DNA from: an uncultured Bacillota bacterium
GTDB lineage: Bacteria > Bacillota_I > Bacilli_A > RFN20 > CAG-826
Assembly: GCA_949293555.1 (NCBI GenBank)
Contig: CASFDV010000003.1
Coordinates: forward strand, 7,614-71,613
Reading direction: 5' to 3'
Length of the DNA: 64,000 bases
How positions within the stretch are numbered: position 1 is the stretch's first letter; each line of letters begins with the position of its first letter. The position numbers and the translations under genes were made by a program. Below are positions 16,604 through 57,948 of the stretch, piece by piece. The notes beneath the pieces are model-generated. The model was not told the origin of the DNA, ran no database searches, and worked only from the letters and a program-made list of their open reading frames with translations.

Positions 16604-16605
16604 GC

Positions 16606-42279: not shown

Positions 42280-42353
42280 GCCCCGCTAGTTAAATGGCAT
42301 AACAGATCCATGGTAAGGATCAATCCGTAGTTCGATTCTGCGGCGGGGCACCA
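42280..42353 (+). tRNA. tRNA-Thr (GGT)
   Basis: GCCCCGCTAGTTAAATGGCATAACAGATCCATGGTAAGGATCAATCCGTAGTTCGATTCTGCGGCGGGGCACCA. Acceptor stem GCCCCGC/GCGGGGC, anticodon loop AUGGUAA, T-loop TTCGATT. Confidence 0.85.
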
Positions 42354-42376
42354 CAAGATCGGGCATGTCTGACGCG

Positions 42377-42412
42377 CCCTGGGCTGAGGCCTAGGCGCCC
42401 AGGCATTTTTTT
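42377..42412 (+). terminator. Rho-independent terminator after tRNA-Thr
   Basis: CCTGGGC...GCCCAGG stem followed by a T7 run. Confidence 0.7.
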
Positions 42413-42626
42413 CGTAGGGAGAGTGCGAGGCCGCGAGGCCGACGCCAGTTTCTCGCGTTTGTCCATTGAGATATTCGAAACTTCTGTAGAAGGCTACATA
42501 AGATTCGGAATTCTCTATATCATTCGCAGATTCTGGTTACTCCCTGAAAACCCGTAATTTGCAGAGGTTTTTGAAGAATGAGCACGGATTGCGCCCGCTT
42601 TCCGCGGGTCTTGTTCGTGAGGACAT

Positions 42627-43940
42627 CTACCTTTCTCTCAGCCAGTCCTTGATGAAGAAGGCGCAGAAATGGGGGAGCGTCAGGACTTTGCCGCAGTAGG
42701 AGATGTTCTTCCTGGTGATCTTGATTCCTTCGGATATGTCCCCGTATTTCGGGTTGGCGATCGCTTCCCGGAGGCTATAGGCGTTGCCGTCCTTGCTCTT
42801 GACTTCCACCGGGACGATCCCGTCCTTGGTCCTGAGGACGAAATCCAGCTCCAAGGTGGAATCGGGCCTCTTGTAGTAGTAGAGGTCCAGCCCGCTTTTG
42901 CTCAGGCATTCCGCCACGGAATTCTCGAAGACGGCCCCTTTGTACACCCCGAAGTTCTTCCTGACCCGGAAGTCCTCCCCGCTTTCCGGGTCCAGGAGGG
43001 AGAGGAGGAGGCCTGTGTCGAAGAAATAGACCTTGAAGGCGTTTGGCACGGTGTTGCCTCGCAAGGGGATCTCGGGAAAGTTCAAGAGCCGGGAGGGGGT
43101 GACGAGCCCAGCGTCGCGAAGCCATTCGATGCATCCGAAGTAGTCGGCGAACCTTCCTCCCTTCCGGACGTGGGAGAAGACGAATTTCTTGTTCTCCTTG
43201 CCAAGCTCCGGGGCGATCGAGTCCATCACGCCGATGATTCGCTCTTGGTCCAGGCCGCCAGCGTATTTCCTGACGTCCGAGCGATAGCCGCCGATGAGTC
43301 CGTTTTGGAGTTCCGGGATGCCTTGGAAGTTTCTCCGAGCCAGATAGGACGATATGACGGCAGGCATTCCGCCAACGACCATGTAGTCGAAGAACAGGCT
43401 TTCGTATGCATCAAGCTCGTTCTCGGAGAAAGGGGACATCGCTTTCACGTGCTGGCGCATGTCCTCTGCCGTTTCCTCGCCATGGCCGCACGCCCAGAGA
43501 AACTCCTCGAAATCGAGGGAGGTCATCTTCCGGATCGTCTGGTAGCCGACGCTGATGCTTTCTATCCTGGAGAGCTGAACCCCGAGGAGAGAGCCGCTGC
43601 ATATGACGTCGTACCTTCCGTCCAGCTTGAAAAACTTGAGCGAGGATGTGATTTCGGGACAAGCTTGTATTTCATCGAAAAAGATGAGCGTCTTGCCCGG
43701 GACGAAGTTGAACGCGGGATTGACGAGGGACATGTTCCTGACGATTTTGTCCGGAGAATAGCCGTCGCCTACGATCCGGGAGAAAAGAGGATTCTCCGCG
43801 AAGTTGACGTAGGCGAGGCTTTCGTAGTTTTCCTTGGCGAACTTAAGGATGCTTTCCGTCTTTCCGACTTGCCTTGCCCCGGTGACGATCAAGGGCAGCT
43901 TGTCGGGGGCGGACTTCCATTCGAGGAGGTACATGTCCAC
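42627..43940 (-). CDS. AAA-family ATPase with DUF4143 domain (second copy in window)
   Basis: Walker A motif TGARQVGKTE and Walker B motif LIFFDEIQ. Lower GC than the core genes. Confidence 0.7.
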   Translation of the reverse strand: MDMYLLEWKSAPDKLPLIVTGARQVGKTESILKFAKENYESLAYVNFAENPLFSRIVGDGYSPDKIVRNMSLVNPAFNFVPGKTLIFFDEIQACPEITSSLKFFKLDGRYDVICSGSLLGVQLSRIESISVGYQTIRKMTSLDFEEFLWACGHGEETAEDMRQHVKAMSPFSENELDAYESLFFDYMVVGGMPAVISSYLARRNFQGIPELQNGLIGGYRSDVRKYAGGLDQERIIGVMDSIAPELGKENKKFVFSHVRKGGRFADYFGCIEWLRDAGLVTPSRLLNFPEIPLRGNTVPNAFKVYFFDTGLLLSLLDPESGEDFRVRKNFGVYKGAVFENSVAECLSKSGLDLYYYKRPDSTLELDFVLRTKDGIVPVEVKSKDGNAYSLREAIANPKYGDISEGIKITRKNISYCGKVLTLPHFCAFFIKDWLRER

Positions 43941-44801
43941 ATTTTTCTGAGATATATATTTCCGGCCTTCCGCTTGATTAATCAGTACACGTACTAAGAT
44001 TGTCGATGACGGATATCAACAGAAACAAGGGCCATGTCTATGTTGAAAACTACAGAAACAAGGGCCTTGTTTGTGAGAAGGCGCTCGGAATCTCGTACGG
44101 ACGAACCTCGTAGGAAATAGGAACCCAAGCAGCCTCGCAGCATCCGGCTCTCTCCATCAGCGCGCTGCCTTCCGTCTCCCCGTAGCCCCTTTGGCCAGCT
44201 CGCTAAATTTCCTTGCAGGGCTCCTTCTGGCTTTCTTGGAAGCAAATCCGGCAAGGTCCCTGCTCTGTCTTACAGTCCTCTGTCTGCGGAGGCCGTTCCG
44301 TCGTTGCACAAGGCTCCGTGCACTCCAAGGCAATCTTGCGTTCCCCACAATAGAGTGTCGCATGAACCCTGCGTTTCCCGCAATAAAACGTGTGCCAGCG
44401 CCGCTGACGTATGGGAAGCAGATCCGGTTCTCGACGGAGGAACCCTGGAGAAGAGGGACGTCCCGGTGTCGCTCCCCTGCCACAAGGCGCCCGGGAGGCC
44501 GAGGGTGAGGTGCTGGAGGGGGTCTAGTTGAACATTGCGAAGCGAGACAATTGGGATCCTGACGTCCTACTAGGCACGTCTGGACGAGAATCAGCTCGCT
44601 CTCGGAAGCTATGTAGCCTTCTGCGGAACTTCCGGCGCAAAGCTCCTCAGTCCAAGGAGACGTCAGGGGCGCTATCTTTTTTTCATGCGCTTCCTCTTAT
44701 TTCACTTGGGAGGAGAGTGGCAATTGCCACCTATCTCTCAAATCCCATTAAAGGAATCGCGTATATATCAGAATTTCTAGGATCGTTCTTGAAGGCCTTC
44801 C

Positions 44802-45350
44802 CTATCGGAAAAGAAGGCTGAGGGAACCGACGATGATCTCGCGGAGGGAAAGCCCGATCTCAGTGCCCGTCCTCCTCATCGCCTCCCTCTGCACGTCGAT
44901 CGGATAGGCGATCGGGTAGTAGCCGTACATCATGGTGATGAAGGAGGCGGCGAGGATGTCCGCGTCCCTCTCCCTCCCGCATTCCCTTGCCAGGCTCCTG
45001 AAGGCGGTCTGGAACCGCTTCAGCTCGCCTTTGAGGACGACGAGGTTCTCCAGGGAGGAGGAGCGCTCGATGTCCTCGAGGCCGCAGGACATGATCTTGA
45101 GGATGATGACGTTCTCCTCCAGGAGGCTCGCGATGGAGGAGATGATCCCCTCCTTGGTGGAAAGCCCCTTTCCCACGAGCCTTTCCAGCCCGTCGTCCAG
45201 CTCCACGAAGTGGTTGTAGAGGGAATCGAGGAGGATCTCCTCCTTGCTCCTGTAGTAGGAGTAGATCGCCGTCCTCGAGATGCGGGTCATCGCCGAGACG
45301 TCCTTGAGGTAGATGGACCGCAGCTCCTTCTTCAGGTAGAGCGCGTCCAT
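44802..45350 (-). CDS. TetR/AcrR-family transcriptional regulator
   Basis: N-terminal HTH in VSAMTRISRTAIYSYYRSKEEIL. Start at MDALY; the listed ORF has 55 aa of spurious extension. Confidence 0.7.
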   Translation of the reverse strand: MDALYLKKELRSIYLKDVSAMTRISRTAIYSYYRSKEEILLDSLYNHFVELDDGLERLVGKGLSTKEGIISSIASLLEENVIILKIMSCGLEDIERSSSLENLVVLKGELKRFQTAFRSLARECGRERDADILAASFITMMYGYYPIAYPIDVQREAMRRTGTEIGLSLREIIVGSLSLLFR

Positions 45351-45356: not shown

Positions 45357-45596
45357 AGGTCCGGGGGAGGGCAGATCCTCCTTTGCACCGACGGGGAAGG
45401 CTGGTGCCAGGAATGGGGGAAGGAGGCGCGGAAGCTCCATCCCGGCGACGTCGTCCTCATCGCCCCCGGCGCCAAGCACTGGCACGGGGCGAGCAAGGAC
45501 GAATGGTTCGCCCACCTCGCGATCGAGGTGCCGGGGGAAGAATGCTCGACCGAGTTACTCGATCCCGTCTCGGACGAGGAGTACGGGAGGCTCTAG
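45357..45596 (+). pseudogene. Cupin-domain gene remnant (C-terminal ~80 aa only, no start codon)
   Basis: The frame encodes GWCQEWGKEARKLHPGDVVLIAPGAKHWHGA..., a cupin_2 core. No ATG is present, and the N-terminal part would lie under the TetR gene. Confidence 0.45.
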
Positions 45597-45642
45597 CGGG
45601 CCTCCCTTTTCGCAGGGAGCCCGGGGAATGTAGACTGGCCCC

Positions 45643-46629
45643 ATGTCCCAGCACGTGATCGTCCGCGAATACGACCCCCGCTACCCAGCCCTATATCGGA
45701 AGGAGGCGGAGCTTATCTCCTCGATCCTCGGGAAGAACCTCGTCGCCATCCATCACATCGGTTCCACCGCGGTGCCCGGGCTCAAGAGCAAGCCCGTCAT
45801 CGACATCATGGCGGCCGTCCGTTCGCTCGAGGACGTCGACGGGAAGAAGGATGAGCTCACGGCGATCGGGTACGAGTGCATGGGGGAGTTCGGAATCAAA
45901 GGGAGGAGGTATCTCCGGAAGGGCGGGGATGAGAGGACCCACCAGATCCACGTCTTCCAGGAAGGGGACAGGGCGAACCTCATGCGCCACCTCGCGACGA
46001 GGGACTATCTCATCGCCCATGAGGACGTCCGGGAGGAGTACGGGAGGATCAAGGAAGAACTTGCCCTCCGCTTCCCCTATGACATCGAGGGGTACTGCGA
46101 CGGGAAGGAGGCATTCGTCCGGAAGCTCGAGGGGAAGGCCCTCCGGGAATACGTCCGGGAAGGAAAGGACATCGGGATCCTCCTGCGTCCTTTCCAAAGG
46201 GGATGGGCGGAGGGCCTCGCCCATATATTCATCCGCGCGATTGATGCGACTTGCGCGAAGGATTATTCGAAGCTCCAGCTCGAGGCATGGGCTTCCGCGG
46301 CAGATCAGGATGGTTGGGCGGATAGGTTCGAGTCCTCGCTCACACTGGTCGCCTTCCTCGGGGAAGAGGCAATCGGGTTCGGGAACATCGAGGAGGGCGG
46401 GCATCTCGACATGCTCTACGTCCATCCGGACTATCAGGGGATGGGCGTCGCCTCGAGGATATGCGACATGCTTGAGTCCCGTGCGGAAGGGGAGATCCGC
46501 GTGGAGTCCTCGCTCACCGCGAAGGGGTTCTTCCTCGGAAGGGGCTATGAGGTCCTCGAGGAGGAGACCGTTTTTCGGAACGGAGCGCCCTTGAGGCGCT
46601 TACTTATGAGGATGAGGAAGGGGGCTTAG
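45643..46629 (+). CDS. GrpB (UPF0157) domain fused to a GNAT N-acetyltransferase
   Basis: The N-terminal ~175 aa are GrpB-like (HHIGSTAVPGLKSKPVIDIM). The C-terminus is a GNAT fold (MLYVHPDYQGMGVASRI). Confidence 0.65.
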   Translation: MSQHVIVREYDPRYPALYRKEAELISSILGKNLVAIHHIGSTAVPGLKSKPVIDIMAAVRSLEDVDGKKDELTAIGYECMGEFGIKGRRYLRKGGDERTHQIHVFQEGDRANLMRHLATRDYLIAHEDVREEYGRIKEELALRFPYDIEGYCDGKEAFVRKLEGKALREYVREGKDIGILLRPFQRGWAEGLAHIFIRAIDATCAKDYSKLQLEAWASAADQDGWADRFESSLTLVAFLGEEAIGFGNIEEGGHLDMLYVHPDYQGMGVASRICDMLESRAEGEIRVESSLTAKGFFLGRGYEVLEEETVFRNGAPLRRLLMRMRKGA

Positions 46630-46776
46630 GGCAATAATCGCCGTTTCTTGGCGATAACTTCGCAGAACTGCCTTCAATCCCCGGATATCGTCGTTACAAG
46701 AGGAATCCCGCGGTTTTGCTAGGCAACCCTTCTTTTGGGGCATGCTTTATGCATCTTGTTGGATAGGGAGAATCCT

Positions 46777-47829
46777 ATGGAACGGGAGCGACCTTCTTTC
46801 TACAATTGCCCTATGGAAGAAAGGCTTCCCACCTACATCGCCCAGTGGACGATGGTCCTCCGGGGCATGCAGGTGGACAACACCTACAAGTGCGCTTGGG
46901 CCCGTGCAATCCTTTCCTGCCTCGGGAAGGGACGCTTCATGCAACTTCCCCCTGACGGGAAGGCGATGCTCCATTTCTCCGACATCGCCAAGGAGATGGT
47001 GAGGCTCTACTGGAACCAGACCTGCTTCTTCCACCTCCGTCAGGCGCCGGAGAAGAGAGGCCAGAGGGGTGCGCTGATCGTCTCCTACGTCGAGGACCTC
47101 ATCGAAAGCTACTATGCGCTCCTCGGGACCAGGAGGCCCTCCTGGTGGAGCGAGGCGGAGCCTCTCCTCAAGGAGGAGAAGGGGCTCCTCGAGAAGACGT
47201 TCCGCGAAGTCGGGAATGTCCTCCCCCAGAACGTCGCCCATCGCTTCCTGAACCTCAAGGGGAGGAGGGACCCCCTGCCCCTATACGAGTACCGGAGGCC
47301 CGAGAAGGCTATCTATTTCGCCTCCTGGCAGGTCGGGCTCCTCATCTCCTTCCGCGAGCTCCTCGAGGATGAGGTCGACCTCCGCTGGGCGGAGATCCTC
47401 GAGAGGTTCAACGGATCGCCGAGGATTGCGAGGAAGGTCGTCGCAGCCTCGAACGAGGAGCTGAGGAGAGGAAGCCTCAAGGAGTTCAAGGACGTCATCC
47501 AGGACGCCTACCGCCGGGTGAGGATCCCTGATTTCTACGAGGAAGGGTCCTATGTCCCTCTCGACGACTTCTCCCTCGACCACGTAATCCCGTGGAGCTA
47601 CCTTTACTCCGACGACATCTGGAACCTCGTCCCGACGAGGAAGGGGAATAACTCCGCGAAGGGGGACTCCCTCCCGGGAAAGGAGGACATCGTCCGCCTC
47701 AAGAGGAGGAACCAGGACCTCCTTCCCCGCCTCAGGGGGATGAAGGGGATGGAAAAGCACGTGGGCGCCCTCCTTTTCGCTGAGGAGAACCATCTCGTCG
47801 ACCTCTACTACGGGGGATGCCTCCTGTGA
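46777..47829 (+). CDS. HNH-endonuclease-domain protein (351 aa) with an uncharacterised N-terminal region
   Basis: C-terminal HNH motif DHVIPWSYLYSDDIWNLVPTRKGNNSAKGD. Start at MERERP, which has a GGGAG RBS. Confidence 0.55.
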   Translation: MERERPSFYNCPMEERLPTYIAQWTMVLRGMQVDNTYKCAWARAILSCLGKGRFMQLPPDGKAMLHFSDIAKEMVRLYWNQTCFFHLRQAPEKRGQRGALIVSYVEDLIESYYALLGTRRPSWWSEAEPLLKEEKGLLEKTFREVGNVLPQNVAHRFLNLKGRRDPLPLYEYRRPEKAIYFASWQVGLLISFRELLEDEVDLRWAEILERFNGSPRIARKVVAASNEELRRGSLKEFKDVIQDAYRRVRIPDFYEEGSYVPLDDFSLDHVIPWSYLYSDDIWNLVPTRKGNNSAKGDSLPGKEDIVRLKRRNQDLLPRLRGMKGMEKHVGALLFAEENHLVDLYYGGCLL

Positions 47830-48383
47830 GCGGCTTCTACGAGGAGAACGCGGAGTTCTACGTCCAGGGCACCTTCCATCTCGACATGGAGGGGACGAGG
47901 AGGAAGTTCCTTTCCTACGTCCCCGAGGGAGGGAGGATCCTCGACCTCGGGTTCGGGTCGGGAAGGGACATGCTCGCCTTTAGGGACGCTGGCTACCAGG
48001 TGGTGGGGATCGACCCCTGCCTTCCTTTCGTCCGGAGAGCAAGGTCCCTGGGGATGGAGGCGCTCGCCCTAAGGGCGGAGGACATGCCCTTCGTAAACGA
48101 GTTCGACGGAATCTGGGCCTCTGCCTCCCTCCTCCATTCGGAGGATCTCCCGAAGGCCCTGGGGAAGTGCCATAAGGCCCTTAGGGAAGGAGGGGTCCTC
48201 TACTGCTCCTTCAAGAAGGGAAGCTTCCGGGGGATGAGGGACGGGAGGTTCTACGCCGACATGGAGCCCTCCACCTTGGAGCAATCCCTGAAGATAGCGG
48301 GTTTCTTCCCTCTTTCGGTATGGACAAGCGAGGATTCCCTTAGGCCGGGCCTCTTCTGGACGAACGGGATGGCCCGTAAATAG
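47817..48383 (+). CDS. Small class I SAM-dependent methyltransferase
   Basis: Motif I ILDLGFGSGRD. No DPPY/NPPF DNA-methyltransferase motif. Overlaps the HNH gene by 13 nt. Confidence 0.65.
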   Translation: MPPVSGFYEENAEFYVQGTFHLDMEGTRRKFLSYVPEGGRILDLGFGSGRDMLAFRDAGYQVVGIDPCLPFVRRARSLGMEALALRAEDMPFVNEFDGIWASASLLHSEDLPKALGKCHKALREGGVLYCSFKKGSFRGMRDGRFYADMEPSTLEQSLKIAGFFPLSVWTSEDSLRPGLFWTNGMARK

Positions 48384-48439
48384 ACATTCGTTATACATTA
48401 AAAAAATTCCGATGAAATCGTCGTTTTTTGCACGTCATC

Positions 48440-48465
48440 TTGAAAAATCAAGGGGGGGGTATTCT
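48440..48465 (+). promoter_or_regulatory. Candidate promoter with a G8 homopolymer in the spacer (TTGAAA-N14 including G8-TATTCT), upstream of the defence operon
   Basis: G8 lies at 48452-48459 between -35-like and -10-like hexamers. The spacer is currently 14 nt, which is sub-optimal. Confidence 0.3.
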
Positions 48466-48505
48466 TCCTTTGTTTTTTGGAGGTTTCGGGAGAGTGGGAG
48501 GCAAG

Positions 48506-50692
48506 ATGGCGGAGACGAATCTTCGAGACGTGCTCGGTCTTGGCCATGACTATTCGAATACGCCAGACACCCCTATCGCGGATTACGTTTTGAATCCGTG
48601 CCTCAGGGAGGCTAAGTCCTTCGACGCCCTATTCGGCTTTTTCTCAAGCGAGTCCTTGATTGCGATCTCTCCCGGGCTGGAGACCTTCTTTTTCCATGGA
48701 GGGAAGATCCGCCTAGCGATATGCGCTTTCGTCAAGAAAGAGGACGTAGCGGCTATCCAAGAAGCCTACGAGGACAAGGAAAGATTCCAGGCGTCTTTTT
48801 CCGAAGCCGAGAAGCGTCTGCTGAAGGAACTCAGGAAGGCCGCCGAAGAGAACCCTGACTCCGTTTCCTTGCTCCGCGAGATGATTGCGGCGAATCGGTT
48901 GGAAATCATAGCCGTCGGACCCTATATGTCGTCGGGCCTGATGCACCAGAAGATCGGAGTATTCGAAGATTCGCATGGGAATTGCGTATCTTTCAGCGGA
49001 AGCTCGAATCTTACCGGAAGCGCGATCACGAGTATCAAAGGGGTGTGGAACTATGAGGACCTCAAGGTGTTCCGGTCCTGGGAAGTTGGAGAAGACAAGT
49101 ACTGCTTTTCCGATAGGAAGAAAGTCCAGGCCGCGTTTTCGGGTGAGGATCAATGGCTCGAACGAAGGGAGCTTAGTGCGATTGTCAGGGAATGCATTGA
49201 TTCCATCCCTGCCGTCTCGCTAAAGCGAAGCTCAGCAAGCGTTCCTTCGTCTGGGCAATCTTCAAGCGTTAAAGAGGATATAGGGGTTGGCTATCTATAC
49301 GACTATCAGAGAAGTGCCGTCGACAGGTGGTTTGAGATGGGTTGCCGTGGCTTCTTCATGATGGCGACTGGCACAGGGAAGACGAGGACGGCACTGGCCG
49401 CGGTCAAGGAATATTGGGAGAAGGGGAGGAACGCCATTGTTGTGGTCGCCGTCCCTCTTCTGGCCCTGGCCGACCAATGGGAAAGGGAGATTGAGCATTG
49501 GCTAGGCGTTCGGCCGATCATGTGCAATTCAAAGAACCCCCAGTGGCGAGAGGAGGTGCAAAGCGCCTTGTCCGGAAGGAGGTTCCGCAACAAGGACGCA
49601 AGGACGGTCCTCTTGGTCACGTACCACTCTAAGAAAAAACTTGAAGCCCAGCTTCGAAACTACCCTAGCGAGAAGTGCCTTCTTCTTGCCGATGAGGCTC
49701 ACCACATCGATCCCGATTGGCTTGAGCAGGCGAAATTCTTCGGCCCTTGCATAGGCTTGAGCGCCACCCCCGGGACGGGAATGCCCGGGGACGAGCTTGG
49801 TCCGCGGATCATCAGGGACTTCGGAGGACTCGCTATCTCCTTGTCGCTTGAGGAAGCTCTCGAGAAGGGCGTGCTTGTTCCATATGACTACTACCCGCTC
49901 TTCTGCCATCCCAACGACAAGGAAGAGGAGAAGTTCCGTCACTACACGCAGCTTATCGCCGCGGCCCTTCAGAGTTCCGATCCGAAGAAGAAGGAAGATT
50001 GCTCTAGGCTTATTCGCCTTCGTTCCCAGGTCGTTGCCAATTGCAGTGACAAGATTTCGCGCCTTGGCGAGTTTATTCAATCTGTAGCGAAAGAAGATCT
50101 CGACCATCTGCTTGTCTATTGCGGAGCGGGGGACATCTATGGCGGAAACATTGCCGAGGAAGAACGCTTCATCTCCTTCGTTCATAAGAAGCTGAAGGAA
50201 ACGTTGCCATGGCTGATCGTCTCCCCGTTCACCAGCCGCGAGGATAAGGTCGAGCGGACTTTGATTTTGAGAGGATTTCAGGAAGGGACGATCAACGCCA
50301 TAACTGCGATTCGCTGCCTAGACGAGGGAATCGACCTTCCCTCTATCCGTGCCGCCCTTATTCTCGCAAGCGGTTCGACTCTTCGGGAGTTCATCCAGCG
50401 GAGGGGCCGAATCCTTCGTCTTTCGAAAGAGACGGGCAAGGATCATGCCTCAATCTATGACGTGGTTTGCCTCCCCCAAGGTGCGGACTGTCAGGCCCTG
50501 GCCCGTTACGAGCTTAGGCGTTTCTATGAGTTCGCTAGGAGCGCTAGAAATTGGGAGATGGGCCTTAAGGATCGTTTGGAACATTACTTGGTTCATTACG
50601 GTCTTGGGACTATTGAGGAAGCCTTCTTTGGCAAGGAGGACGATTTCGTGATGGAGAAGATACAGATGGAAGGAGACGAAGCGGATGCCTAG
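48506..50692 (+). CDS. PLD-family (HKD) nuclease domain fused to an SF2 DEAH-box helicase
   Basis: N-terminal HKD motif LMHQKIGVFED...SGSSNLTGSA. Helicase motifs MMATGTGKT (I), LLADEAHH (II) and QRRGRILR (VI). RBS GGGAGG before the MAETNL start. Confidence 0.75.
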   Translation: MAETNLRDVLGLGHDYSNTPDTPIADYVLNPCLREAKSFDALFGFFSSESLIAISPGLETFFFHGGKIRLAICAFVKKEDVAAIQEAYEDKERFQASFSEAEKRLLKELRKAAEENPDSVSLLREMIAANRLEIIAVGPYMSSGLMHQKIGVFEDSHGNCVSFSGSSNLTGSAITSIKGVWNYEDLKVFRSWEVGEDKYCFSDRKKVQAAFSGEDQWLERRELSAIVRECIDSIPAVSLKRSSASVPSSGQSSSVKEDIGVGYLYDYQRSAVDRWFEMGCRGFFMMATGTGKTRTALAAVKEYWEKGRNAIVVVAVPLLALADQWEREIEHWLGVRPIMCNSKNPQWREEVQSALSGRRFRNKDARTVLLVTYHSKKKLEAQLRNYPSEKCLLLADEAHHIDPDWLEQAKFFGPCIGLSATPGTGMPGDELGPRIIRDFGGLAISLSLEEALEKGVLVPYDYYPLFCHPNDKEEEKFRHYTQLIAAALQSSDPKKKEDCSRLIRLRSQVVANCSDKISRLGEFIQSVAKEDLDHLLVYCGAGDIYGGNIAEEERFISFVHKKLKETLPWLIVSPFTSREDKVERTLILRGFQEGTINAITAIRCLDEGIDLPSIRAALILASGSTLREFIQRRGRILRLSKETGKDHASIYDVVCLPQGADCQALARYELRRFYEFARSARNWEMGLKDRLEHYLVHYGLGTIEEAFFGKEDDFVMEKIQMEGDEADA

Positions 50693-50894
50693 GCGTGAGG
50701 ATAAAAACGAAGTCAGCCAGGCCGCTGCAGCCCAATTGCGCGAGGGCGCTTTGTCGGAGGCGAAAGATATTCTTGCCTCTCCGCAGGTCAACCTCAGCAT
50801 GAAGAAAGCAGCAGCCCAGAAGCTTTATCAGACGGCTCTCAAGCTTGCAGAAGTCGAGCTCGCAAAAGAGGAGGACTCTGTGGATGCTGATTGA
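50685..50894 (+). CDS. Small (69 aa) predicted helical protein, translationally coupled between the helicase and ATPase genes
   Basis: AAGGAG RBS. Its ATG overlaps the upstream TAG stop, and its own stop overlaps the ATPase start. Confidence 0.45.
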   Translation: MPRREDKNEVSQAAAAQLREGALSEAKDILASPQVNLSMKKAAAQKLYQTALKLAEVELAKEEDSVDAD

Positions 50895-52959
50895 GAAGGT
50901 CTGGGCGGAGAATTTTAGAAACTTCCGTAAGTTTGGAAGGCGCGACCGCCCAATTCGTTTTAATACTGACGGCAAAGTCAACTTGATTTACGGGAAATCC
51001 GGCTTTGGGAAAAGCACTATCCTTCAGCTTCTCCAATGGATTCTCTATGGAAGATGCGAGTTTTCTGAAGACGATCTGGTCAACAGCGGGGTTAGGAAGG
51101 ACGCCGATATTGGGTCCGATGTCACTCTGTACGGGTCTTTGACCATCTTGGTGGATGGGATTCGTTATTACATTCAACGTCGTTGGCTATTCTTGAAGCA
51201 GCCCGGTGGCGGTTTGCGCAGGAAGAAGAAAAAGGATAAGAACGACCAAGAACACCCTGAAGAGTATTTCACTATTGAGAAAGAGAACCCCGATGGGAGC
51301 GCCACGCCGATTCAAGGCGAGAAAGGGGATGAGGGGCGGGAGTTTATCGATCGAATCATGCCCCAGGGGCTTGCTGGCTACTTCTTCTTTGACGGCGAAC
51401 AGTTCATAGATCGGTTTGAAGACAGCAAAAACTCAAATGGGAAGAGACTGAAGGAAGCGATCGCGACCTTGTTTCAAACGGATGTTTATAACGTTGCGAA
51501 AGAACTTCTTTCAGGATCTGCGTGGTCGGTTTCGGGCATGTTGGATAAAGGGCTAAGCGAAGCGAGATATTCCGGCTTCAAAGGCCTGGAAGAGGCTCGC
51601 GAGGCTGAGGAGCAAGCAAAAAACTCTTTTCACAGGGCGGAACAGATGTGCGAATTGCGGAGGCAGGAAGCAAAATCCGAACAGAAAGAGATGCTTGTCC
51701 TTTCCGAAACGCTTAAGGACATCCCTAACCAGGAAGATTTGAAGAGGCGGATTAACGATTTAGAGAAGGAACAGGAGTCGTTGCGGAGGCAGTATGACGA
51801 CCTTCTTCTTAAGATTGCCGCTTCTGCTAGGTCCCATTTCATGTCCTTTGCCGTTGCCAAGAATGTCGTTGATGCCGTAAGGATGAAACCGGATGAGATT
51901 GGCGACCAGGAAGTGCCGGCCTCGTTGACCAAAGAACTTATTGAATGCCTAGAGGAAAAGGAAGAATGCATTTGCGGCCACCGTATTGGGAAACTGGAGA
52001 GAGAGCAGTTGGAACGATGGCTTACAGCGCTCCCTCCAGCATCCTATCGACCGACATACGATTCTTATCTCGAGCGGAAAGACTCAGCAGTGGAGCATGA
52101 ATTGGAGCGGGGATTCCGCGACTTGCACAGCCTCGTGGAGGAACTGGTCGCCAAAGAAGAACGAATTAGAGTCTTGGCCAACAAGCTCAAGGAGGCCTGG
52201 GAGCGGCAGCGGGCGGGTTTTGATGCCGATGCCGAAAGCAAATGGAAAAGGCTAAGGGCGCTTCAGGAGAAAGTTAAAAAGACCAACGATTCTATTGGTG
52301 AGTTATCTGCGGAGGCCGATCGAAAGAAACACATCTGGGAAGCGGCAAGGAAACGTTTTGATGAGGCCTTAAGGCAGGCGAACATCGCCCGAAAGGAGCG
52401 CTATGCCCTTTCGTTGTCCAACGAGGTCGCCGAGCTTTTTGAAGCACTCGCCAAGCAACGTACCTTAAATGTCCGAACGGATCTCCAGCAAGCGATCGAA
52501 GAGTACCTCAACAAAATCCTTGTAGGAGCCGTAAAGACCGCTGAGCTAAGCGAGGATTTCAAGCTTACGATCCGCGAGGGGGATATCACTTACAAGTCGA
52601 GAGGCCAGGCCGCAGTCGCCTGCTATAGCTATGTCCTTGGCATCCTCGCGGTTCTTAAGCGTTTCCGGGATCGCCATGAGGATGACATCCTTGACCTCTC
52701 CGACGAATACCCACTTGTCATCGACGCCCCTTTCAGCGAGACCGACAGGGAGCAGACCCTGCATGCCCTTTCCTATTTCCGTGAGATTCCTAAGCAGATT
52801 GTCCTTATGTCCAACCGCGACCTGAACGACATGGTCGAAGAAGTGGACGCGGGGACCATCTATGTCATTAAAGGCGTAGGGGTGGACGCCTTCATCGAGG
52901 AATGCTCTTACGAGGATGTGGATCGCTACTTTGCCGAGGGTGGCGAGAAGGAGGACTAG
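50884..52959 (+). CDS. SMC/RecF-like AAA ATPase (AAA_23-type N-terminal Walker A with coiled-coil middle), DndD paralogue-like
   Basis: VNLIYGKSGFGKSTILQLLQWILYG P-loop, a long coiled-coil, and C-terminal Walker B/D-loop (LVIDAPFSETD). RBS AGAGGAGGA. Confidence 0.7.
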   Translation: MLIEKVWAENFRNFRKFGRRDRPIRFNTDGKVNLIYGKSGFGKSTILQLLQWILYGRCEFSEDDLVNSGVRKDADIGSDVTLYGSLTILVDGIRYYIQRRWLFLKQPGGGLRRKKKKDKNDQEHPEEYFTIEKENPDGSATPIQGEKGDEGREFIDRIMPQGLAGYFFFDGEQFIDRFEDSKNSNGKRLKEAIATLFQTDVYNVAKELLSGSAWSVSGMLDKGLSEARYSGFKGLEEAREAEEQAKNSFHRAEQMCELRRQEAKSEQKEMLVLSETLKDIPNQEDLKRRINDLEKEQESLRRQYDDLLLKIAASARSHFMSFAVAKNVVDAVRMKPDEIGDQEVPASLTKELIECLEEKEECICGHRIGKLEREQLERWLTALPPASYRPTYDSYLERKDSAVEHELERGFRDLHSLVEELVAKEERIRVLANKLKEAWERQRAGFDADAESKWKRLRALQEKVKKTNDSIGELSAEADRKKHIWEAARKRFDEALRQANIARKERYALSLSNEVAELFEALAKQRTLNVRTDLQQAIEEYLNKILVGAVKTAELSEDFKLTIREGDITYKSRGQAAVACYSYVLGILAVLKRFRDRHEDDILDLSDEYPLVIDAPFSETDREQTLHALSYFREIPKQIVLMSNRDLNDMVEEVDAGTIYVIKGVGVDAFIEECSYEDVDRYFAEGGEKED

Positions 52960-53484
52960 ATGAACAACAGCCAGCCAATTTCAAGTTCCATCGTCCTTTA
53001 TGGCGCACCTTGGCATGAGGCCAGGGCAAAGTTTTGCCAAAACAAAGGGAACGGCATCCTCTTCGAGACTGCCGCCGAGCTGTTCATCTTTTGCTCGGCG
53101 ATAGGGGTGCGAATCGGCTCTCCGACCGAACAATTTCCACCGGATGAGGAAAACCCGCAAGGCGTCGAGGTTCCTTATACGGTCCTTGAGCGGCCAAAGA
53201 ACAAGGATTTTCTTAGCGACCTCTACGCGACTGTTTTGTTTAACCGGTGGATTGAACCAAAAAAGACAGACATTCAGCGTCTGGAGGTGATTTTCGAGAA
53301 GGGTGCTCCCTCTGACCGCCACAAGATCCTTGAGCCCTATGCGCGGACAGGGGTCCTCCACCTTCTCGAATACACGAAGGACTTTGTGAAGGAATGGCCC
53401 CTCATTGAACGAGTGTGGTCGGATCTTGCGGAACTCTACGAAGAACCGCGCATCCTTGGAGGGGAAGATTCTTCAGAGGAATGA
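52960..53484 (+). CDS. Hypothetical 174-aa protein of the defence operon
   Basis: ATG lies immediately after the ATPase stop codon. Its stop overlaps the dndC start (ATGA). No recognisable motif; weak resemblance to DndE only. Confidence 0.5.
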   Translation: MNNSQPISSSIVLYGAPWHEARAKFCQNKGNGILFETAAELFIFCSAIGVRIGSPTEQFPPDEENPQGVEVPYTVLERPKNKDFLSDLYATVLFNRWIEPKKTDIQRLEVIFEKGAPSDRHKILEPYARTGVLHLLEYTKDFVKEWPLIERVWSDLAELYEEPRILGGEDSSEE

Positions 53485-54860
53485 CGATGACAGAGGATGG
53501 TCGCCTTTCCGTCTTTTCGTCCGTCCTCGAGGACATGGAGAGGGTGTACCTCCACGACCAGAGGCCCTGGATGATCGGCTATAGCGGGGGCAAGGACTCC
53601 TCTCTTTTGACGATGCTCGCCTTCGAGATGCTCCAGAAGATCCCGGAAGGCAAGCGTTGGAAACCGATATACGTGGTTTCCAGCGATACTCGCCTTGAGA
53701 ACCCGGTCGTCTCCCTCTACATGCATGCGTCCAACCGGAAGATCGGACGTTACGCCCATGAAAACAATCTCCCGGTCATCTCGGAAATCATCTATCCCAA
53801 GGACGAAGAGACGTTCTGGACCCTCGTGATCGGGAAAGGCTATCCGACCCCGGAGCCTCCGGGGTTCCGCTGGTGCACCGAGCGTTTGAAAATCAATCCG
53901 ATGAACCGTTTCGTCGACGGGATCATCCAGGAGCATGGCGAAGTCGTCATCCTCCTGGGAGTCCGCAAGGGCGAGTCCGGGACGAGGAAGAGGAGCATCG
54001 AGTCCCGCGAGATCGAGGGGCGGCTTCTCCAGCATCACGAGACTCTCCCCAAGGCGTGGGTATTCAATCCTCTCACGGAGGTCCCTAACGACCTTGTCTG
54101 GCCCTATCTCCTGAAAGGGGATGGAATCGCCCCTTGGGGGACCGACCTTAAGAAGCTTTACGCGATGTATCGCGGGGCCGACCTTTCCGAGGAGCAGTCC
54201 GTGATCGGGCAGGTCGACATCTCGAACATGCCGGTCACGGGGAACAGCCGCTTCGGGTGCTGGTGCTGCACCATCGTGAAGGAGGACAAGTCCCTCGCGA
54301 ACTTCATCGCGAAGGGCGCGAACGAACTCGCTCCTCTGAGGGATTTCCGGAACTGGCTCGTCTCGATCCGGCAGGACCCCGCCTACCGGGAGAAGCATCG
54401 GGCGAACGGGAAGGTCTACAGGAAATCGGACGGGGAAGTCGGGCTTGGCCCTTTCACCCTGGACGCGAGGGAGGAGATCCTGCGGAGGCTTCTCGCCCTT
54501 CAAAAGAGGACCGGCTTCTCGCTCATATCGGAAGGAGAGCTCCGCCTCATCGATCGCGCCTGGGAGGACGAGGGGGATTTGTCGCGCCGGCGCCTTGTGG
54601 ACGCCTACCGTGACGTCATGGGGAAGAAGCTTCCATGGGACGAGGAGAAGCGCGCCCTGATGGACGAGGATTTCCTCAGGGAGCTTGAGGATTTGTGCGA
54701 TAGGAACGGCCTTCCGTTCGAGGCCATCGGGAAGGTCCTCATGGCGGTCGAGAAGGGGAGGGTCGGGAAGACCAGGGATGCCCTCCGCAAGTCTGCGAAG
54801 AGAATTCTTTCCCAAGAGTATCTCCATCAGGACGCGCTGAGGGAGGGGGAGGAAGCATGA
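53481..54860 (+). CDS. dndC: DNA phosphorothioation protein DndC (PAPS-reductase-like PP-loop ATP pyrophosphatase)
   Basis: PP-loop motif MIGYSGGKDSS, conserved NSRFGCWCCT cysteine motif, about 460 aa. Directly followed by dndD and dndE. Confidence 0.8.
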   Translation: MTMTEDGRLSVFSSVLEDMERVYLHDQRPWMIGYSGGKDSSLLTMLAFEMLQKIPEGKRWKPIYVVSSDTRLENPVVSLYMHASNRKIGRYAHENNLPVISEIIYPKDEETFWTLVIGKGYPTPEPPGFRWCTERLKINPMNRFVDGIIQEHGEVVILLGVRKGESGTRKRSIESREIEGRLLQHHETLPKAWVFNPLTEVPNDLVWPYLLKGDGIAPWGTDLKKLYAMYRGADLSEEQSVIGQVDISNMPVTGNSRFGCWCCTIVKEDKSLANFIAKGANELAPLRDFRNWLVSIRQDPAYREKHRANGKVYRKSDGEVGLGPFTLDAREEILRRLLALQKRTGFSLISEGELRLIDRAWEDEGDLSRRRLVDAYRDVMGKKLPWDEEKRALMDEDFLRELEDLCDRNGLPFEAIGKVLMAVEKGRVGKTRDALRKSAKRILSQEYLHQDALREGEEA

Positions 54861-56953
54861 AGATTCTCGCCGCGGAAATCGAAAACTTCGGCCCCTACGT
54901 CGGGCGCACCCGCTTCGACCTTTCTCCCGAAGGGACCATCCGCAGGATTGTGCTTATGGGAGGGAAGAACGGAGCGGGCAAGACGACTTTCTTCGAGTCG
55001 CTCCGGCTTGCGCTTTACGGTCCGAAGGCGTTCGGCCTTGCCGTCAGGAACGCCAAGTACGGTAAGAAAGTCGCCTCCCTCGTCAACAAGCGCGTGCTCC
55101 GGGAAGGGAAGGCGCGGGCCTCGGTCGCCGTTTCCCTTCGCCTTGAGGACGGGAACCATGAGAACGGATCCTATCGGCTCGATCGTTCCTGGGAAATCGA
55201 GGGCAAGGACGTCAGGGAAACCCTCAAGGTGTCCTTCAAGCCGGATAACGGGGACGAGAGGCTCCTTGGCAGGGAAGAGGAACAGGACTTCGAGATGACG
55301 CTTGAGTCCCTCTTGCCCTTGTCGCTTTTCCCGTTCTATTTCTTCGACGGGGAGAAACTCACGGACTTCTTTCTGGACGGCAAGGGCTTCCGCGAGACCT
55401 TGATCGCGATGACCGGGCTGGAGAGCCTCGACATGCTCGTCTCGATCCTTGGCGACCTCGCGAAGAAGGAGGGGAGGGCGAAGGACGCCGGGAGGCGGTT
55501 CGAAAAGGCGGAGAAAACCTATCTTTCCCTTAAGTCGAAATGGGATGCCCTCCGCGAGGAACGGGATGCCCTGAAAGAGGAAATCGAGAAAAAGGAAGAG
55601 GATTTCCAGGAATTTCAGAAGGAATTCCTTAGAAAAGGAGGCCTTTCCGTGAAGGCAAGGCGCGCCCTTGAGAAAGAAATAGAGCATGAGACGGAAGAAA
55701 GGGAGAGGAAGCGCGTGGAGCTCAAGGCCTTTGCGAACACGCATCTCCCTCTCCTCATCATGGAACGACAGGTGCGGAAGGCGCTTGAGGGGGCCGATTC
55801 CTCCCGTTCCGCCTTCCTTGTCCGGGAGATCAAGAAGGCCGCGGAGGAGCGAGGGGTCCTCCCTCTTATTTCCGAGCAGCTCGGTCCCGAAGGACTCGAC
55901 GGGCTCCTTAGGTCCATCTTCGGGGAGGAGGCGCTCAAGGGGGAAGGCGCAGGCTTCTACCGCCCCTCGCCGGAAGAACTTTCTCGCATTCATGAGCAAT
56001 TGGCGGAGGCTAGGTCCGCCGACCTTGGCTATTTCAAGGCGATCGAGGAAGACATCTATGGCTCCATGTCGATGCAGCGGGGGATACGGGAAAGGCTCAA
56101 AGGAGTTTCCGAGGAAGGAGAGAGGGCGCTTGAGAAAGAGCGGAAGGAACTGGAGAAGTTCCGCTTCTCTGTCCTGAGGAAGATCAGGGAGAAAGAAGAT
56201 TCCCTGGAGGCGCTCCTTCCCGATTTCCTTAAGGCGGAGGCGGAATATCGCTCGGCTTCCAAGGAGAGGGACGACCGGCTGAGGGAAGAGTCCGCGCACA
56301 GCCTTGCCGCGAAGGCGCACCTTGTCCTCGCGGAGTTCGAACGCCATCTTTTCGCGAAGCAGGTGGATCGGCTGAAGGACTCCTTCCTCTCCATCTTCTC
56401 TTCGATCATCAACAAGGACGGCCTTGTCGACGGGCTTGAAGTCGATTCCATGCTCCGCGTCTACCCCGTTCTTTCCGAACAGGTATCCCTGGGGGAGATG
56501 GCGCGCCTCCGCGAGGAGCTGGGAGAAGCCGAGTTCGAAGAACGATACGGGGAGGCTGCCCTTTCCATGACCTATCTTGAGATGGATGAAGAACAGGTCC
56601 GGATGCCACTCAAGGTAAGCGGGATGTCCGCCGGGGAGAGGCAGGTGTATCTATTCGCTCTCTACGGGGCCCTTGCCACGATCGCCGACCACCGGATGCC
56701 CTTCCTCATCGATTTCCCGTTCGGCCGGGTCGATACCGTCCACCGCATGGGCATGGTGGACCATTTCTTCCTTTCCCTTCCCGGGCAGGTCGTCATCCTT
56801 TCGACGGACGAGGAGGTGCAAGGGGCGCTTCTGGAGGAGATGGACCCCTTCATCGCGAGGTCCTACACGATCGAGAGCAAGGGGGACGGGACTAGCCGCG
56901 TTCTCGAAGGCGTCTACTTCGGGAAGGAGGTTCCTTATGGGAAACAGGCTTAG
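54857..56953 (+). CDS. dndD: DNA sulfur modification protein DndD (SMC-like ATPase)
   Basis: Characteristic N-terminus MKILAAEIENFGPY...IVLMGGKNGAGKTTFFESLRLALYGP, long coiled-coil, C-terminal ABC signature/Walker B (GMSAGERQ, PFLIDFPF). ATGA overlap with dndC. Confidence 0.85.
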   Translation: MKILAAEIENFGPYVGRTRFDLSPEGTIRRIVLMGGKNGAGKTTFFESLRLALYGPKAFGLAVRNAKYGKKVASLVNKRVLREGKARASVAVSLRLEDGNHENGSYRLDRSWEIEGKDVRETLKVSFKPDNGDERLLGREEEQDFEMTLESLLPLSLFPFYFFDGEKLTDFFLDGKGFRETLIAMTGLESLDMLVSILGDLAKKEGRAKDAGRRFEKAEKTYLSLKSKWDALREERDALKEEIEKKEEDFQEFQKEFLRKGGLSVKARRALEKEIEHETEERERKRVELKAFANTHLPLLIMERQVRKALEGADSSRSAFLVREIKKAAEERGVLPLISEQLGPEGLDGLLRSIFGEEALKGEGAGFYRPSPEELSRIHEQLAEARSADLGYFKAIEEDIYGSMSMQRGIRERLKGVSEEGERALEKERKELEKFRFSVLRKIREKEDSLEALLPDFLKAEAEYRSASKERDDRLREESAHSLAAKAHLVLAEFERHLFAKQVDRLKDSFLSIFSSIINKDGLVDGLEVDSMLRVYPVLSEQVSLGEMARLREELGEAEFEERYGEAALSMTYLEMDEEQVRMPLKVSGMSAGERQVYLFALYGALATIADHRMPFLIDFPFGRVDTVHRMGMVDHFFLSLPGQVVILSTDEEVQGALLEEMDPFIARSYTIESKGDGTSRVLEGVYFGKEVPYGKQA

Positions 56954-57314
56954 GACGTCCCTTCATACGAAGAAGGTGTTCGACGAGGTGAGGAACATCA
57001 GCCGCCTCCAGCCGTTCGCTCTTTCGAAGATCGCCCTCGCCTTGTCCATTCGCATGGAAACCCCCTTGTCGGAGGAAGACTTCAAGACAGATAACGAGGG
57101 GCTTGAGCTGGCAAGGGAAACCGTATGCGGACCGTATGATTCCCTCTTTTCCATGGTCGTGTGCGAGGACGCTGGGAAGGCGATCGCGGACTCGGAAATC
57201 TTCTCCACCTATTTCAAGGCCCATATCGACCGGGGCGCGAAGGAACTGGAGAAGGAGTTCCGTTACGACAAGAGGCTTTTCCGTCGCCTCATCGGCCTGA
57301 AGGATTCGATCTAG
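56937..57314 (+). CDS. dndE: DNA sulfur modification protein DndE
   Basis: 125 aa, immediately downstream of dndD with a 17-nt overlap. RBS GGAAGGAGG. Sequence pattern ISRLQPFALSKIALALSI...FKAHIDRG is typical of DndE. Confidence 0.7.
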   Translation: MGNRLRTSLHTKKVFDEVRNISRLQPFALSKIALALSIRMETPLSEEDFKTDNEGLELARETVCGPYDSLFSMVVCEDAGKAIADSEIFSTYFKAHIDRGAKELEKEFRYDKRLFRRLIGLKDSI

Positions 57315-57381
57315 CACTGCTTTGATATCGCCTTTTCAATACAAGGCAAATCAACGTATCTACGGTTTTTTATAACTAAAC

Positions 57382-57420
57382 TCCAGAAAATCCGGAATGC
57401 AATTCCAGAAAATCCGGAAT
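57382..57420 (+). repeat. Two direct copies of TCCAGAAAATCCGGAAT (22-bp period) flanking a GGAATGCAATTCC palindrome
   Basis: Copies at 57382-57398 and 57404-57420, immediately after the dnd operon and before a truncated gene. Confidence 0.7.
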
Positions 57421-57432
57421 TCAGTCCTTTTC

Positions 57433-57948
57433 CTAGAGGAAGAGGAACGCCTCGGCCTGGAGGGCGAGTAGCCCTATGAGGAGGGCGGGCACCGCGACCA
57501 TGAGGCCTTCCCTCGTGAAGCGAAGGAAGGTGAGAGGGGCCCCTTCCTCCCTTACCTTCTGGAGGAACATGAGCCCAGCAAGGGCCTCGAAGGGGGTGAG
57601 ATAGGCGGCGAGGTTCGAGGAAAGGATGACCGCGTAGGGGGCAAGGGCCTCGTAAGGGGCGGACAGGAACACTTCCTCGAAGAGGACGGACATGGGGATG
57701 TTGTTCATGAGGTTCGCCAGGAGCATCGACCCGAGCCCGTGGCTCCAGATCGAATAGCCCTCCTGGTTCAGGTTCCCCGCGAGGAGGGAGGTGATCCCCT
57801 GCTCGTCCAGGGCAAGGACGACGACGAACATTCCGAGGAGGAGGGGGAGGAGGGAATAGGGAAGCCTCCCGCTGGAGAAGGGCCTGACGCTCCCCTCGAT
57901 CGACCTCGGCTTCCTGGAGGTGGGGTCCACCACCTTCTTCTGGATCAT
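57433..57948 (-). pseudogene. C-terminal fragment (171 aa) of an ArsB/NhaD-family permease; N-terminal part missing and replaced by lgt on the opposite strand
   Basis: Only the C-terminal hydrophobic segments are present. The ORF start overlaps the lgt start region. Confidence 0.4.

Follow-up and report, generated by a model that had tools for sequence, protein, structure and literature searches.

The 64,000-nucleotide stretch analyzed here (the window), part of contig CASFDV010000003.1 of an uncultured Bacillota bacterium, contains a tRNA-Thr gene and, farther along, lgt, the gene for prolipoprotein diacylglyceryl transferase. The DNA between these two anchors is probably a long-lived, integrase-less, multi-slot hotspot for accessory and defence genes, and not the single old, fixed genomic island inserted next to the tRNA that an earlier note had proposed. 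Five modules would make up the hotspot. A slot opening 20–57 bp past the tRNA would hold, in the window, an exchanged AAA_14-DUF4143 ATPase gene bracketed by debris of an IS256-family insertion sequence (IS). It would be followed by an older block of native composition, with a TetR-like remnant, a cupin remnant, a GrpB-GNAT fusion gene, and an HNH-methyltransferase pair, and then by the 8.8-kb operon pbeABCD-dndCDE. A hairpin-bounded insertion point after dndE would be empty in the window, and the last module would be the scar of a 4.55-kb microhomology-mediated deletion that joined the 3′ part of a permease gene to the start region of lgt. Turnover, whose mechanisms and in part direction we infer from these remains, would proceed through IS256-family transposition and IS-associated deletion, through homologous recombination within the conserved genes between slots, and through illegitimate recombination.

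Composition and Gene Content of the Interval

The gene map was drawn from frame-specific guanine-plus-cytosine content at third codon positions (GC3) and from profile searches with Pfam, NCBIfam, and PADLOC. These searches found the AAA-DUF4143 ATPase, GrpB-GNAT fusion, HNH, and methyltransferase genes that the earlier note had named, and PADLOC detected a cluster of known or candidate defence genes. Accessory, partly foreign DNA does start right after tRNA-Thr, as had been claimed. Counted in 1-kb windows, GC is 0.60–0.66 across the left flank at 17–42 kb (0.61–0.65 at 37–42 kb), 0.55–0.56 at 42–45 kb, 0.58–0.63 at 45–48 kb, 0.49–0.55 at 48–54 kb, and 0.58–0.61 at 54–58 kb, and it returns to 0.62–0.67 beyond 58 kb.

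The GC drop is real, but it is uneven rather than island-wide when each gene is compared with 21 flanking genes (mean GC 0.632, standard deviation (sd) 0.015; GC3 0.854, sd 0.062; coding-strand GC skew −0.044). The only strong outliers are pbeA, pbeC, and pbeD, with GC of 0.51–0.54, GC3 of 0.60–0.65, z(GC) of −6 to −8 (lowest −7.8), z(GC3) of −3.3 to −4.1, and codon-usage z of 3.3–3.9. The dndC, dndD, and dndE genes (GC z of −2.2 to −4.9) and the AAA_14-DUF4143 gene (GC z = −4.3) are low in GC, with GC3 and codon use within ~1.5 sd. The TetR-like, GrpB-GNAT, HNH, and methyltransferase genes at 44.8–48.4 kb are native-like, with GC within ~2 sd and GC3 and codon use within ~1 sd, and the cupin piece (78 codons) lies at +2.5 sd in GC. 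The drop after tRNA-Thr is the sum of compositionally distinct pieces of at least three classes. Similarly low-GC genes also occur at 0–16 kb of the window. No integrase domain was found in any main open reading frame (ORF) of 42.3–58.7 kb in the Pfam, NCBIfam, and PADLOC scans, in agreement with the earlier note, and an Rfam scan of 41–59 kb matched the tRNA alone.

Variation Among Related Strains

Relatives were gathered by a genome-collection scan and by exact-protein look-ups and mapped by blastn and tblastn, giving seven informative haplotypes. A scan with the nucleoside hydrolase adjoining the tRNA gave one useful relative (L006), the other 79 loci being non-syntenic homologues, and a metagenome scan with the HNH protein found nothing. 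L006 and L087 are two contigs of one metagenome-assembled genome (CALVOS01, "uncultured Bacilli bacterium") with ~80% nucleotide identity to the window.

Cargo between the conserved flanking genes varies across related strains. Strains ~91–98% identical over their aligned parts differ at no fewer than four sub-sites of the locus, which argues against a fixed island. In L006, tRNA-Thr is followed by low-GC AbiEi/AbiEii genes, the TetR remnant, the cupin fragment, and the GrpB-GNAT, HNH, and methyltransferase genes, the contig ending within the last of these; L087 runs from a fragment of a 239-residue gene at its contig end through an 875-residue gene to lgt. L092/L093 (~91% identity overall) carry two AAA_14-DUF4143 genes after the tRNA and, later, a radical S-adenosylmethionine (SAM) gene. 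L095, which is 89% identical to L006 in the segment of the p218 gene and the tRNA, carries tRNA-Thr, a different AAA gene, an intact IS256-family element, and an AAA gene of the window type. Depending on the haplotype, the slot after the tRNA holds an AAA gene, two AAA genes, AbiE, or an intact IS256-family element.

Farther downstream, window positions 48395–55942 are replaced in L084, L089/L090, and L092 by ~1.7 kb comprising an internally deleted IS256-family copy and the radical-SAM gene. The replaced part takes in all of pbeABCD and dndC and codons 1–361 of dndD, which is cut at codon 362, and the truncated dndD persists together with dndE. Because dndD is cut mid-gene beside an IS remnant in these strains, the intact operon would be the older state and the radical-SAM arrangement would be derived. 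L084, L088, and L089/L090 also contain an extra, unrelated AAA_14-DUF4143 gene of 412 residues between dndE and the permease 3′ end (slot C), where the window has 54 bp; this gene is 24–35% identical to the AAA gene of the window. L089 has in addition a 476-residue HATPase-like gene between GrpB-GNAT and HNH. L088 contains dndC, dndD, dndE, the extra AAA gene, an intact 436-residue ArsB/CitMHS permease gene, a 239-residue gene, an 889-residue gene, and a 254-residue lgt. Across strains, three to four distant AAA_14-DUF4143 variants (24–39% identity) fill three positions of the hotspot. Presence or absence of the interval en bloc is not seen among the seven haplotypes, which differ by sub-modules. 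Between strains, dS, the synonymous divergence, ranges from 0.025 to 0.55 in adjacent genes, and this unevenness is consistent with recombination.

The Slot Downstream of tRNA-Thr

The tRNA-Thr gene (42280–42353, forward strand; anticodon GGT), found by ARAGORN and scoring 53.9 bits with the Rfam tRNA model, is present where the earlier note had placed it and anchors the variable region on the left. At ~42378–42415, 3′ of it, lie a terminator-like hairpin and a T-run. Homology with relatives stops 19–57 bp past the tRNA (at 42372 in the comparison with L006 and at 42410 in that with L095), and between L095 and L006 themselves it stops ~24 bp past it; these lineage breakpoints lie just past the terminator-like hairpin and T-run. 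When the 3′ end of the tRNA was used as a 24- or 17-nt query with up to three mismatches, only the tRNA itself matched in the window, so that no attR-type copy exists at the distal edge. The tRNA-Thr gene is the border of a permissive slot, and site-specific integration has left no trace there.

In the window, this slot is occupied by the AAA_14-DUF4143 ATPase gene (42627–43940, reverse strand; 437 residues; Pfam DUF4143 2e-27, AAA_14 3e-22), which matches PDC-S01, a PADLOC candidate single-gene defence family, at 8.7e-139. The region 42550–43506 has 96.9% nucleotide identity to L095 (95–98% for the gene), whereas the same pair shares 71% identity in the adjoining p218 gene and 86% in the tRNA region. 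Since ~97% identity stands against a backbone of 71–86% in the same lineage, the comparison is direct evidence for a recent horizontal exchange of this gene between lineages.

The same relative identifies the debris around the gene. Members of the IS256 family encode a Transposase_mut protein, measure ~1.3 kb, and have roughly 25-nt inverted repeats and an 8-bp target duplication. The L095 element conforms to this pattern, being 1351 bp long with a 393-residue Transposase_mut/MULE protein and 25-nt terminal inverted repeats; it is flanked by the 8-bp target duplication TAAGCGGC and abuts the window-type AAA gene. Remnants of it occur both in the window and in the radical-SAM haplotypes. Unlike an intact IS256 element, the window retains decayed pieces only, of ~18 nt and ~420 bp (44185–44604), and no transposase ORF is present there. 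The smaller piece is a terminal inverted repeat remnant (42527–42544) abutting the 3′ flank of the AAA gene; within it and one position beyond, window 42529–42545 is a 17-nt exact match to the end of the intact L095 IS (4571–4587), which holds the same place relative to the AAA gene in both loci. The larger piece lies in a gene-free stretch of 861 bp (43941–44801), the ~800-bp gap of the earlier note, as decayed remnants at 44185–44305 and 44415–44604 that have 72–73% nucleotide identity to the L095 IS by blastn; residues 292–384 of the L095 transposase match the stretch by tblastn at E = 7e-6. A 120-bp copy of 44414–44532 adjoins the radical-SAM gene in L084, L089, and L092, and the place of the gene-free stretch is taken in L092 by a second AAA_14-DUF4143 gene. 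Because Pfam gave zero matches for the 78-residue ORF beside the radical-SAM gene and for the ORFs of the gene-free stretch, the IS256 identity was shown by a tblastn search of plasmids and by comparison with the intact L095 element. The 78-residue remnant matches ISEfm2, an IS256-like element, at E = 3e-4 in the plasmid search (7.3 Gb) and at 3e-9 in direct comparison, and its identity to the L095 transposase is 69%.

A 25-nt inverted motif, CGAAACTTCTGTAGAAGGCTACATA, has its left arm at 42476–42500 and its partner at 44610–44634, the arms being 84% complementary. In the window the arms flank the AAA gene and the IS debris ~2.1 kb apart, and in L095 they lie just 54 bp apart (1654–1678 and 1733–1757), right after the tRNA-Thr terminator. 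This arrangement, which is marginal statistically, suggests insertion into a palindromic site; the pair may represent a palindromic target or else a miniature element. It is conceivable, if rather doubtful, that AAA_14-DUF4143 genes of the PDC-S01 type are self-contained cassettes that IS256-family elements carry into preferred intergenic sites of palindromic or hairpin type. If the AAA genes are real anti-phage genes, the locus would show how they spread and diversify. The AAA gene of the window and that of slot C in L084 were considered as copies of one mobile element; this was rejected, as they share only 35% identity over 98 residues.

The Central Block

At 44802–45350 on the reverse strand lies a gene that the earlier note had called tetR. 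The gene is there, but its identity as TetR falls below threshold (TetR_N, E = 0.0016, 18.6 bits with a cut-off of 24; TetR_C_34, E = 0.0028, 18.2 bits with a cut-off of 26.3). Compared with L084, it has a nonsynonymous-to-synonymous ratio (dN/dS) of 0.89 and two indels, and in L006 its middle part is deleted; the gene is probably decaying. Next to it, a cupin fragment (45363–45596, forward strand) encodes the C-terminal 77 residues, to which the Cupin_2 and AraC_binding matches are limited and with which the translation agrees. The in-frame sequence 5′ of the fragment is antisense to the TetR-like gene. In L006 the fragment is 80.5% identical at the amino acid level, and nucleotide homology resumes exactly at 45363. 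Because L006 has the same fragment with the same breakpoint, the truncation would predate the split of lineages that are now ~20% diverged.

The rest of the block, all on the forward strand, consists of the GrpB-GNAT fusion gene (45643–46629; Pfam GrpB 9e-51, Acetyltransf_10 1e-17; GC3 z = −0.6), an HNH_4 protein gene (46813–47829), and a class-I SAM methyltransferase gene (47817–48383) that overlaps the HNH_4 gene, both of these identified by Pfam. All three are present in L006, L084, L089, and L092, the HNH and methyltransferase genes with or without Pbe/Dnd downstream. They are intact in every haplotype and native-like in composition, and may be either ancestral chromosome or a very old, ameliorated acquisition. 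The sole PDB similarity of the HNH protein is to the HNH motif of Cas9, and a role as a ScoMcrA-like phosphorothioate-dependent nuclease is unsupported. Between close strains, GrpB-GNAT shows 76–85% nucleotide identity, a dS of 0.31, and several indels, and its neighbours are far less diverged (97.8% identity for the TetR-like gene and 95.7% for HNH).

The pbeABCD-dndCDE Operon

What had been called the dnd operon does include dndCDE; it is in truth pbeABCD-dndCDE, its 5-kb pbe module (48506–53484) having been missed. The seven genes run continuously from pbeA to dndE on the forward strand with overlapping start and stop codons over 8.8 kb, the pbe gene starts being taken from gene calls on L081. 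PbeA (48506–50692) combines an HKD-like nuclease with a superfamily 2 (SF2) helicase and matches the PADLOC PbeA profile at full length (1.2e-157). Its ORF covers 754 residues from 48428 to 50692, of which the gene call from 48506 takes 728. A phospholipase-D-type motif, HQK...GSSN, lies at residue 173, ahead of the SF2 helicase domains (ResIII, Helicase_C), with the aspartate spaced one residue off the canonical HxK(x)4D, and the match to TIGR04095 reaches 317 bits, under the cut-off of 600. PbeC (50884–52959) is a CxC-type ABC ATPase (PADLOC PbeC 8.5e-54) with a single CIC at residue 375 of the 704-residue ORF (50845–52959), for which the gene call from 50884 gives 691 residues. PbeB (50685–50894; 69 residues) and PbeD (52960–53484; 174 residues) are assigned by size and position, in the places where this kind of system has a small PbeB and a DndE-like PbeD. 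The dnd genes are well supported, with dndC (53481–54860) at 374.8 bits for TIGR03183 (cut-off 290.4; PADLOC DndC 4.8e-123), dndD (54857–56953) at 318.2 bits for TIGR03185 (cut-off 245.85; PADLOC DndD 7e-99), and dndE (56937–57314) at 61.8 bits for PF08870 (cut-off 25).

The DndCDEA-PbeABCD system has been described as a phosphorothioate-based defence (Xiong et al., 2019, PMC6459918) and was re-annotated by Rakesh et al. (2024, PMC10853773); the HKD-like and CxC motifs in the window match the published description of the Pbe proteins (PMC10853773; PMC6459918). As in that system, PbeA, a small PbeB, a CxC PbeC, and a small PbeD adjoin DndC, DndD, and DndE on one strand. The window locus differs in having pbeABCD upstream of dndCDE and in being without dndA, so that a housekeeping desulfurase would be needed. 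Neither dndA, dndB, nor any cysteine desulfurase gene was found within the 42–58 kb locus, and housekeeping IscS commonly replaces DndA as the sulfur donor (PMC10853773). Also unlike the described system, the two halves are unlike in composition (GC3 of 0.60–0.65 for pbe and 0.76–0.81 for dnd), which suggests that they may have been combined from different sources and fits the "mix and match" coupling of Pbe and Dnd described previously (PMC10853773). Homology suggests that DndCDE, aided by a housekeeping cysteine desulfurase, would phosphorothioate the DNA of the host and that PbeABCD would act against unmarked invading DNA; both the marking and the defence activity are predicted from the genes.

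The Right Edge

The earlier note saw the right edge of the island in two 17-bp direct repeats and a permease fragment. The repeat TCCAGAAAATCCGGAAT does occur in exactly two copies, at 57382–57398 and 57404–57420, 22 bp apart; at least three matches at up to three mismatches were obtained in none of 100 shuffles. The repeats do not mark an edge in the manner of attachment (att) sites. Each unit is near-palindromic, and the pair folds as one hairpin (57382–57420) with a 22-bp stem (−32.6 kcal/mol, z = −4.2) between the convergent dndE (stop at 57314) and permease (stop at 57433) genes, where a consensus scan also places terminator-like sites. The repeats are kept with the permease 3′ flank in all relatives, and both copies sit at the right edge, with none at the left. 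An att-site role was rejected for these repeats and for the tRNA 3′ end, since neither has an edge-to-edge copy within the window. Most likely, the repeats act like a terminator in both directions and at the same time mark a site of recurrent insertion. The slot C insertion point, where relatives and the window diverge (57379–57381), lies beside the hairpin; homology with L084, L085, L088, and L089 begins at 57379, and the L083 contig ends at 57421.

Beyond the hairpin, a 171-residue ORF on the reverse strand (57433–57948) carries the tail of an ArsB/CitMHS-type permease (Pfam ArsB 1.6e-8, profile positions 277–419 of 423). It consists of the last 145 permease codons (57433–57869) and 26 fortuitous codons antisense to the lgt 5′ end. 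The fragment reported by the earlier note is therefore real, but the loss exceeds the half that it had stated, amounting to two thirds (291 of 436 residues) relative to the intact orthologue in L088. It is also not a scar of island insertion. Positions 4043–4533 of L088 correspond to window 57379–57869 and 9086–12064 to window 57860–60843, the two overlapping at a 10-bp microhomology, GGAAGCCTCC (57860–57869), within which lies the junction of a 4.55-kb deletion that took 291 permease codons, a 239-residue gene, and an 889-residue gene. The identical junction in L083, L084, and L089 points to a single event. The deleted state would be derived, because L088 and the ~80% relative L087 retain genes upstream of lgt, and the coexistence of dndCDE with the intact permease in L088 shows the deletion to be unrelated to Dnd insertion.

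The ORF has a dN/dS of 0.18–0.29 (against L084 and L083). On this ground a selected small protein was considered and not adopted, since frameshifts of the permease tail in L083 and L089 and ~160 bp of near-identical sequence around the junction fit a recent deletion better. We read the ORF as a recent pseudogene, whose differences would mostly predate the deletion and have been mixed by recombination. The sole more distant homologue of the permease tail, at 47% identity (L086 9430–10741, an NCBI genome), is also split, into ORFs of 127 and 246 residues, in an unrelated sugar/ABC-transporter context.

The conserved right anchor, lgt (57887–58651, forward strand; Pfam LGT 1.4e-19), begins with ACG at 57887–57889 in the window and with ATG in all five relatives compared (L083, L084, L087, L088, L089). 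The next in-frame start, GTG at 57920, lies 11 codons downstream with poor Shine-Dalgarno spacing. The ACG could be a true loss of the start codon or a sequencing error. A frameshift of lgt in L084 is only apparent, being a scaffold gap (a run of N).

Alternative Explanations and Comparison with Known Systems

That a site-specific recombinase brought a single ancient integrative island into tRNA-Thr, whose integrase and att sites were later lost as it was eroded and remodelled, is unlikely. Such an origin would agree with variable DNA starting, by three independent comparisons, no farther than 20–57 bp from the tRNA 3′ end, with the GC of 42–58 kb (0.49–0.63), which is mostly under the 0.60–0.66 of the flanks (17–42 and 58–63 kb; 45–46 kb, at 0.63, and 47–48 kb, at 0.62, are in range), with the absence of an integrase from the locus, and with the decayed genes that the earlier note had correctly seen at both ends. 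However, the tRNA 3′ end is uncopied and no repeat runs from edge to edge, the composition falls into three classes with a native-like 3-kb central block, and this block (45363–48394) follows tRNA-Thr in a ~80% relative with different tRNA-proximal cargo. The right decayed end is a separate deletion on the lgt side, the flanking permease gene being intact beside dndCDE in L088, and the locus is polymorphic among close strains. An intact flanking gene in a relative, which the earlier note had named among its grounds for refutation, is seen on the right flank. Like tRNA-targeting integrative islands, the locus lies directly downstream of a tRNA gene and has partly atypical accessory cargo; unlike them, it has no integrase, no tRNA-derived or edge-to-edge repeat, and no en-bloc presence or absence, and its composition is not uniformly atypical. 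No positive evidence for a single ancient integration remains. A low-GC region beside a tRNA need not be an integrative island, and here the signal is several independent events summed.

Two further accounts are less probable still. It is very unlikely that the interval is native DNA, with low GC owing to gene content alone and relatives differing by deletions. Host-like GC3 and codon use in the central block and on the permease/lgt side would suit this account, as would the real deletions in the truncated dndD of L084 and in the 4.55 kb lost from the window. It is opposed by the AAA gene that is 97% identical across lineages next to far more diverged neighbours, the intact IS with its target-site duplication in L095, the unrelated cargo in the same slots (AbiE, AAA variants at 24–39% identity, radical SAM), and the GC3 of pbeABCD (0.60–0.65) against a host mean of 0.85 ± 0.06. 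A chimeric metagenomic contig joined at the low-GC segment is the least probable of all. All sequences are metagenomic, the contigs of relatives often break here (L006 in the methyltransferase gene, L083 at 57421, L087 in the 239-residue gene), and the junction at 57325–57378 is without independent support; yet a Logan contig (ERR10610683) reproduces 35643–56629 at 100%, an ENA contig reproduces 41124–48160 at 99.99%, four other assemblies share the permease/lgt deletion junction exactly, and the operon is unbroken from pbeA to dndE.

Several observations also weigh against the multi-slot hotspot that we favor. The comparative set consists of metagenomic contigs from about three species-level groups, many of them broken within the locus, and the dndE-to-hairpin junction (57325–57378) occurs in the assembly of the window only. 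An empty site, with tRNA-Thr directly followed by the permease/lgt block, is absent from the seven haplotypes, whose sampling is limited. Strain identity is patchy outside the locus too (75–99% in 500-bp windows at 36–38 kb), so mosaic divergence is no peculiarity of the hotspot. In the gene-free stretch, the two IS fragments are oriented in a way that misfits one simple copy. Defence roles of the AAA_14-DUF4143 genes and of the HNH-methyltransferase pair are putative, and PbeB and PbeD have no Pfam or PADLOC match, nor PbeD a PDB match.

Chromosomal defence islands and hotspots between conserved core genes are known for Escherichia coli and Pseudomonas pangenomes. The locus resembles them in being anchored by conserved genes at both ends (tRNA-Thr and lgt), in its strain-dependent cargo (PDC-S01-type ATPases, AbiE, Pbe-Dnd), and in having no dedicated integrase, with IS elements and deletion scars in evidence. 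It differs in having at least four independently varying slots, parted by conserved non-defence genes, and in belonging to a sparsely sampled lineage with no known empty state. The systems are of known kinds and the hotspot is of an ordinary type, so that the value of the locus is descriptive and leaves current understanding unchanged. It offers a compact, well-resolved case of what would be integrase-less defence hotspot turnover in an uncultured lineage, with IS256 insertion and decay, replacement of Pbe-Dnd by an IS and a radical-SAM gene, and microhomology deletion on view, and with it a complete pbeABCD-dndCDE operon becomes known from a high-GC bacterium that is poorly sampled.

Other Accessory Loci in the Window and Its Relatives

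A second region of lowered GC (0.54–0.59 in many 1-kb windows) occupies 1–16700 of the window and ends at tRNA-Asp/tRNA-Phe (16526–16682, reverse strand); it may be another accessory region beside tRNA genes. It contains a second AAA_14-DUF4143 gene (2561–3838, forward strand; 425 residues), whose codon usage deviates more than that of any other gene in the window (z = 4.1, GC3 0.64) and which is only ~24% identical to the slot C AAA genes of relatives, as well as a UvrD-helicase/Top1-zinc-ribbon fusion gene at 8888–11809 and an ATPase_2-DUF234 gene (14913–16289) adjoining tRNA-Asp/tRNA-Phe. At 30101–31375, on the reverse strand, lies a gene with Schlafen AlbA_2 and HATPase_c_4 domains and a GC3 of 0.77, lower than that of its neighbours; this domain pair often occurs in defence contexts.

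On the right side, L083, L089, and L090 carry an extra gene of 505 residues (L089 13360–14854), 32% identical to the 413-residue protein of the window (60851–62092), between the gene for that protein and a 204-residue gene. The window is without it, and ~140 bp of the window (61992–62132) match both sides of the extra segment. Past the right end of the window, relatives have more defence-type genes after a Hint-domain protein of 1053–1063 residues, with content varying by lineage: AIPR, MTaX1, DNA methylase, and HATPase_c_3 in L087 (10531–15879), and McrB_N/NOV_C and a SPASM protein in L088–L090 (L088 17571–22013, L089 18944–21902).

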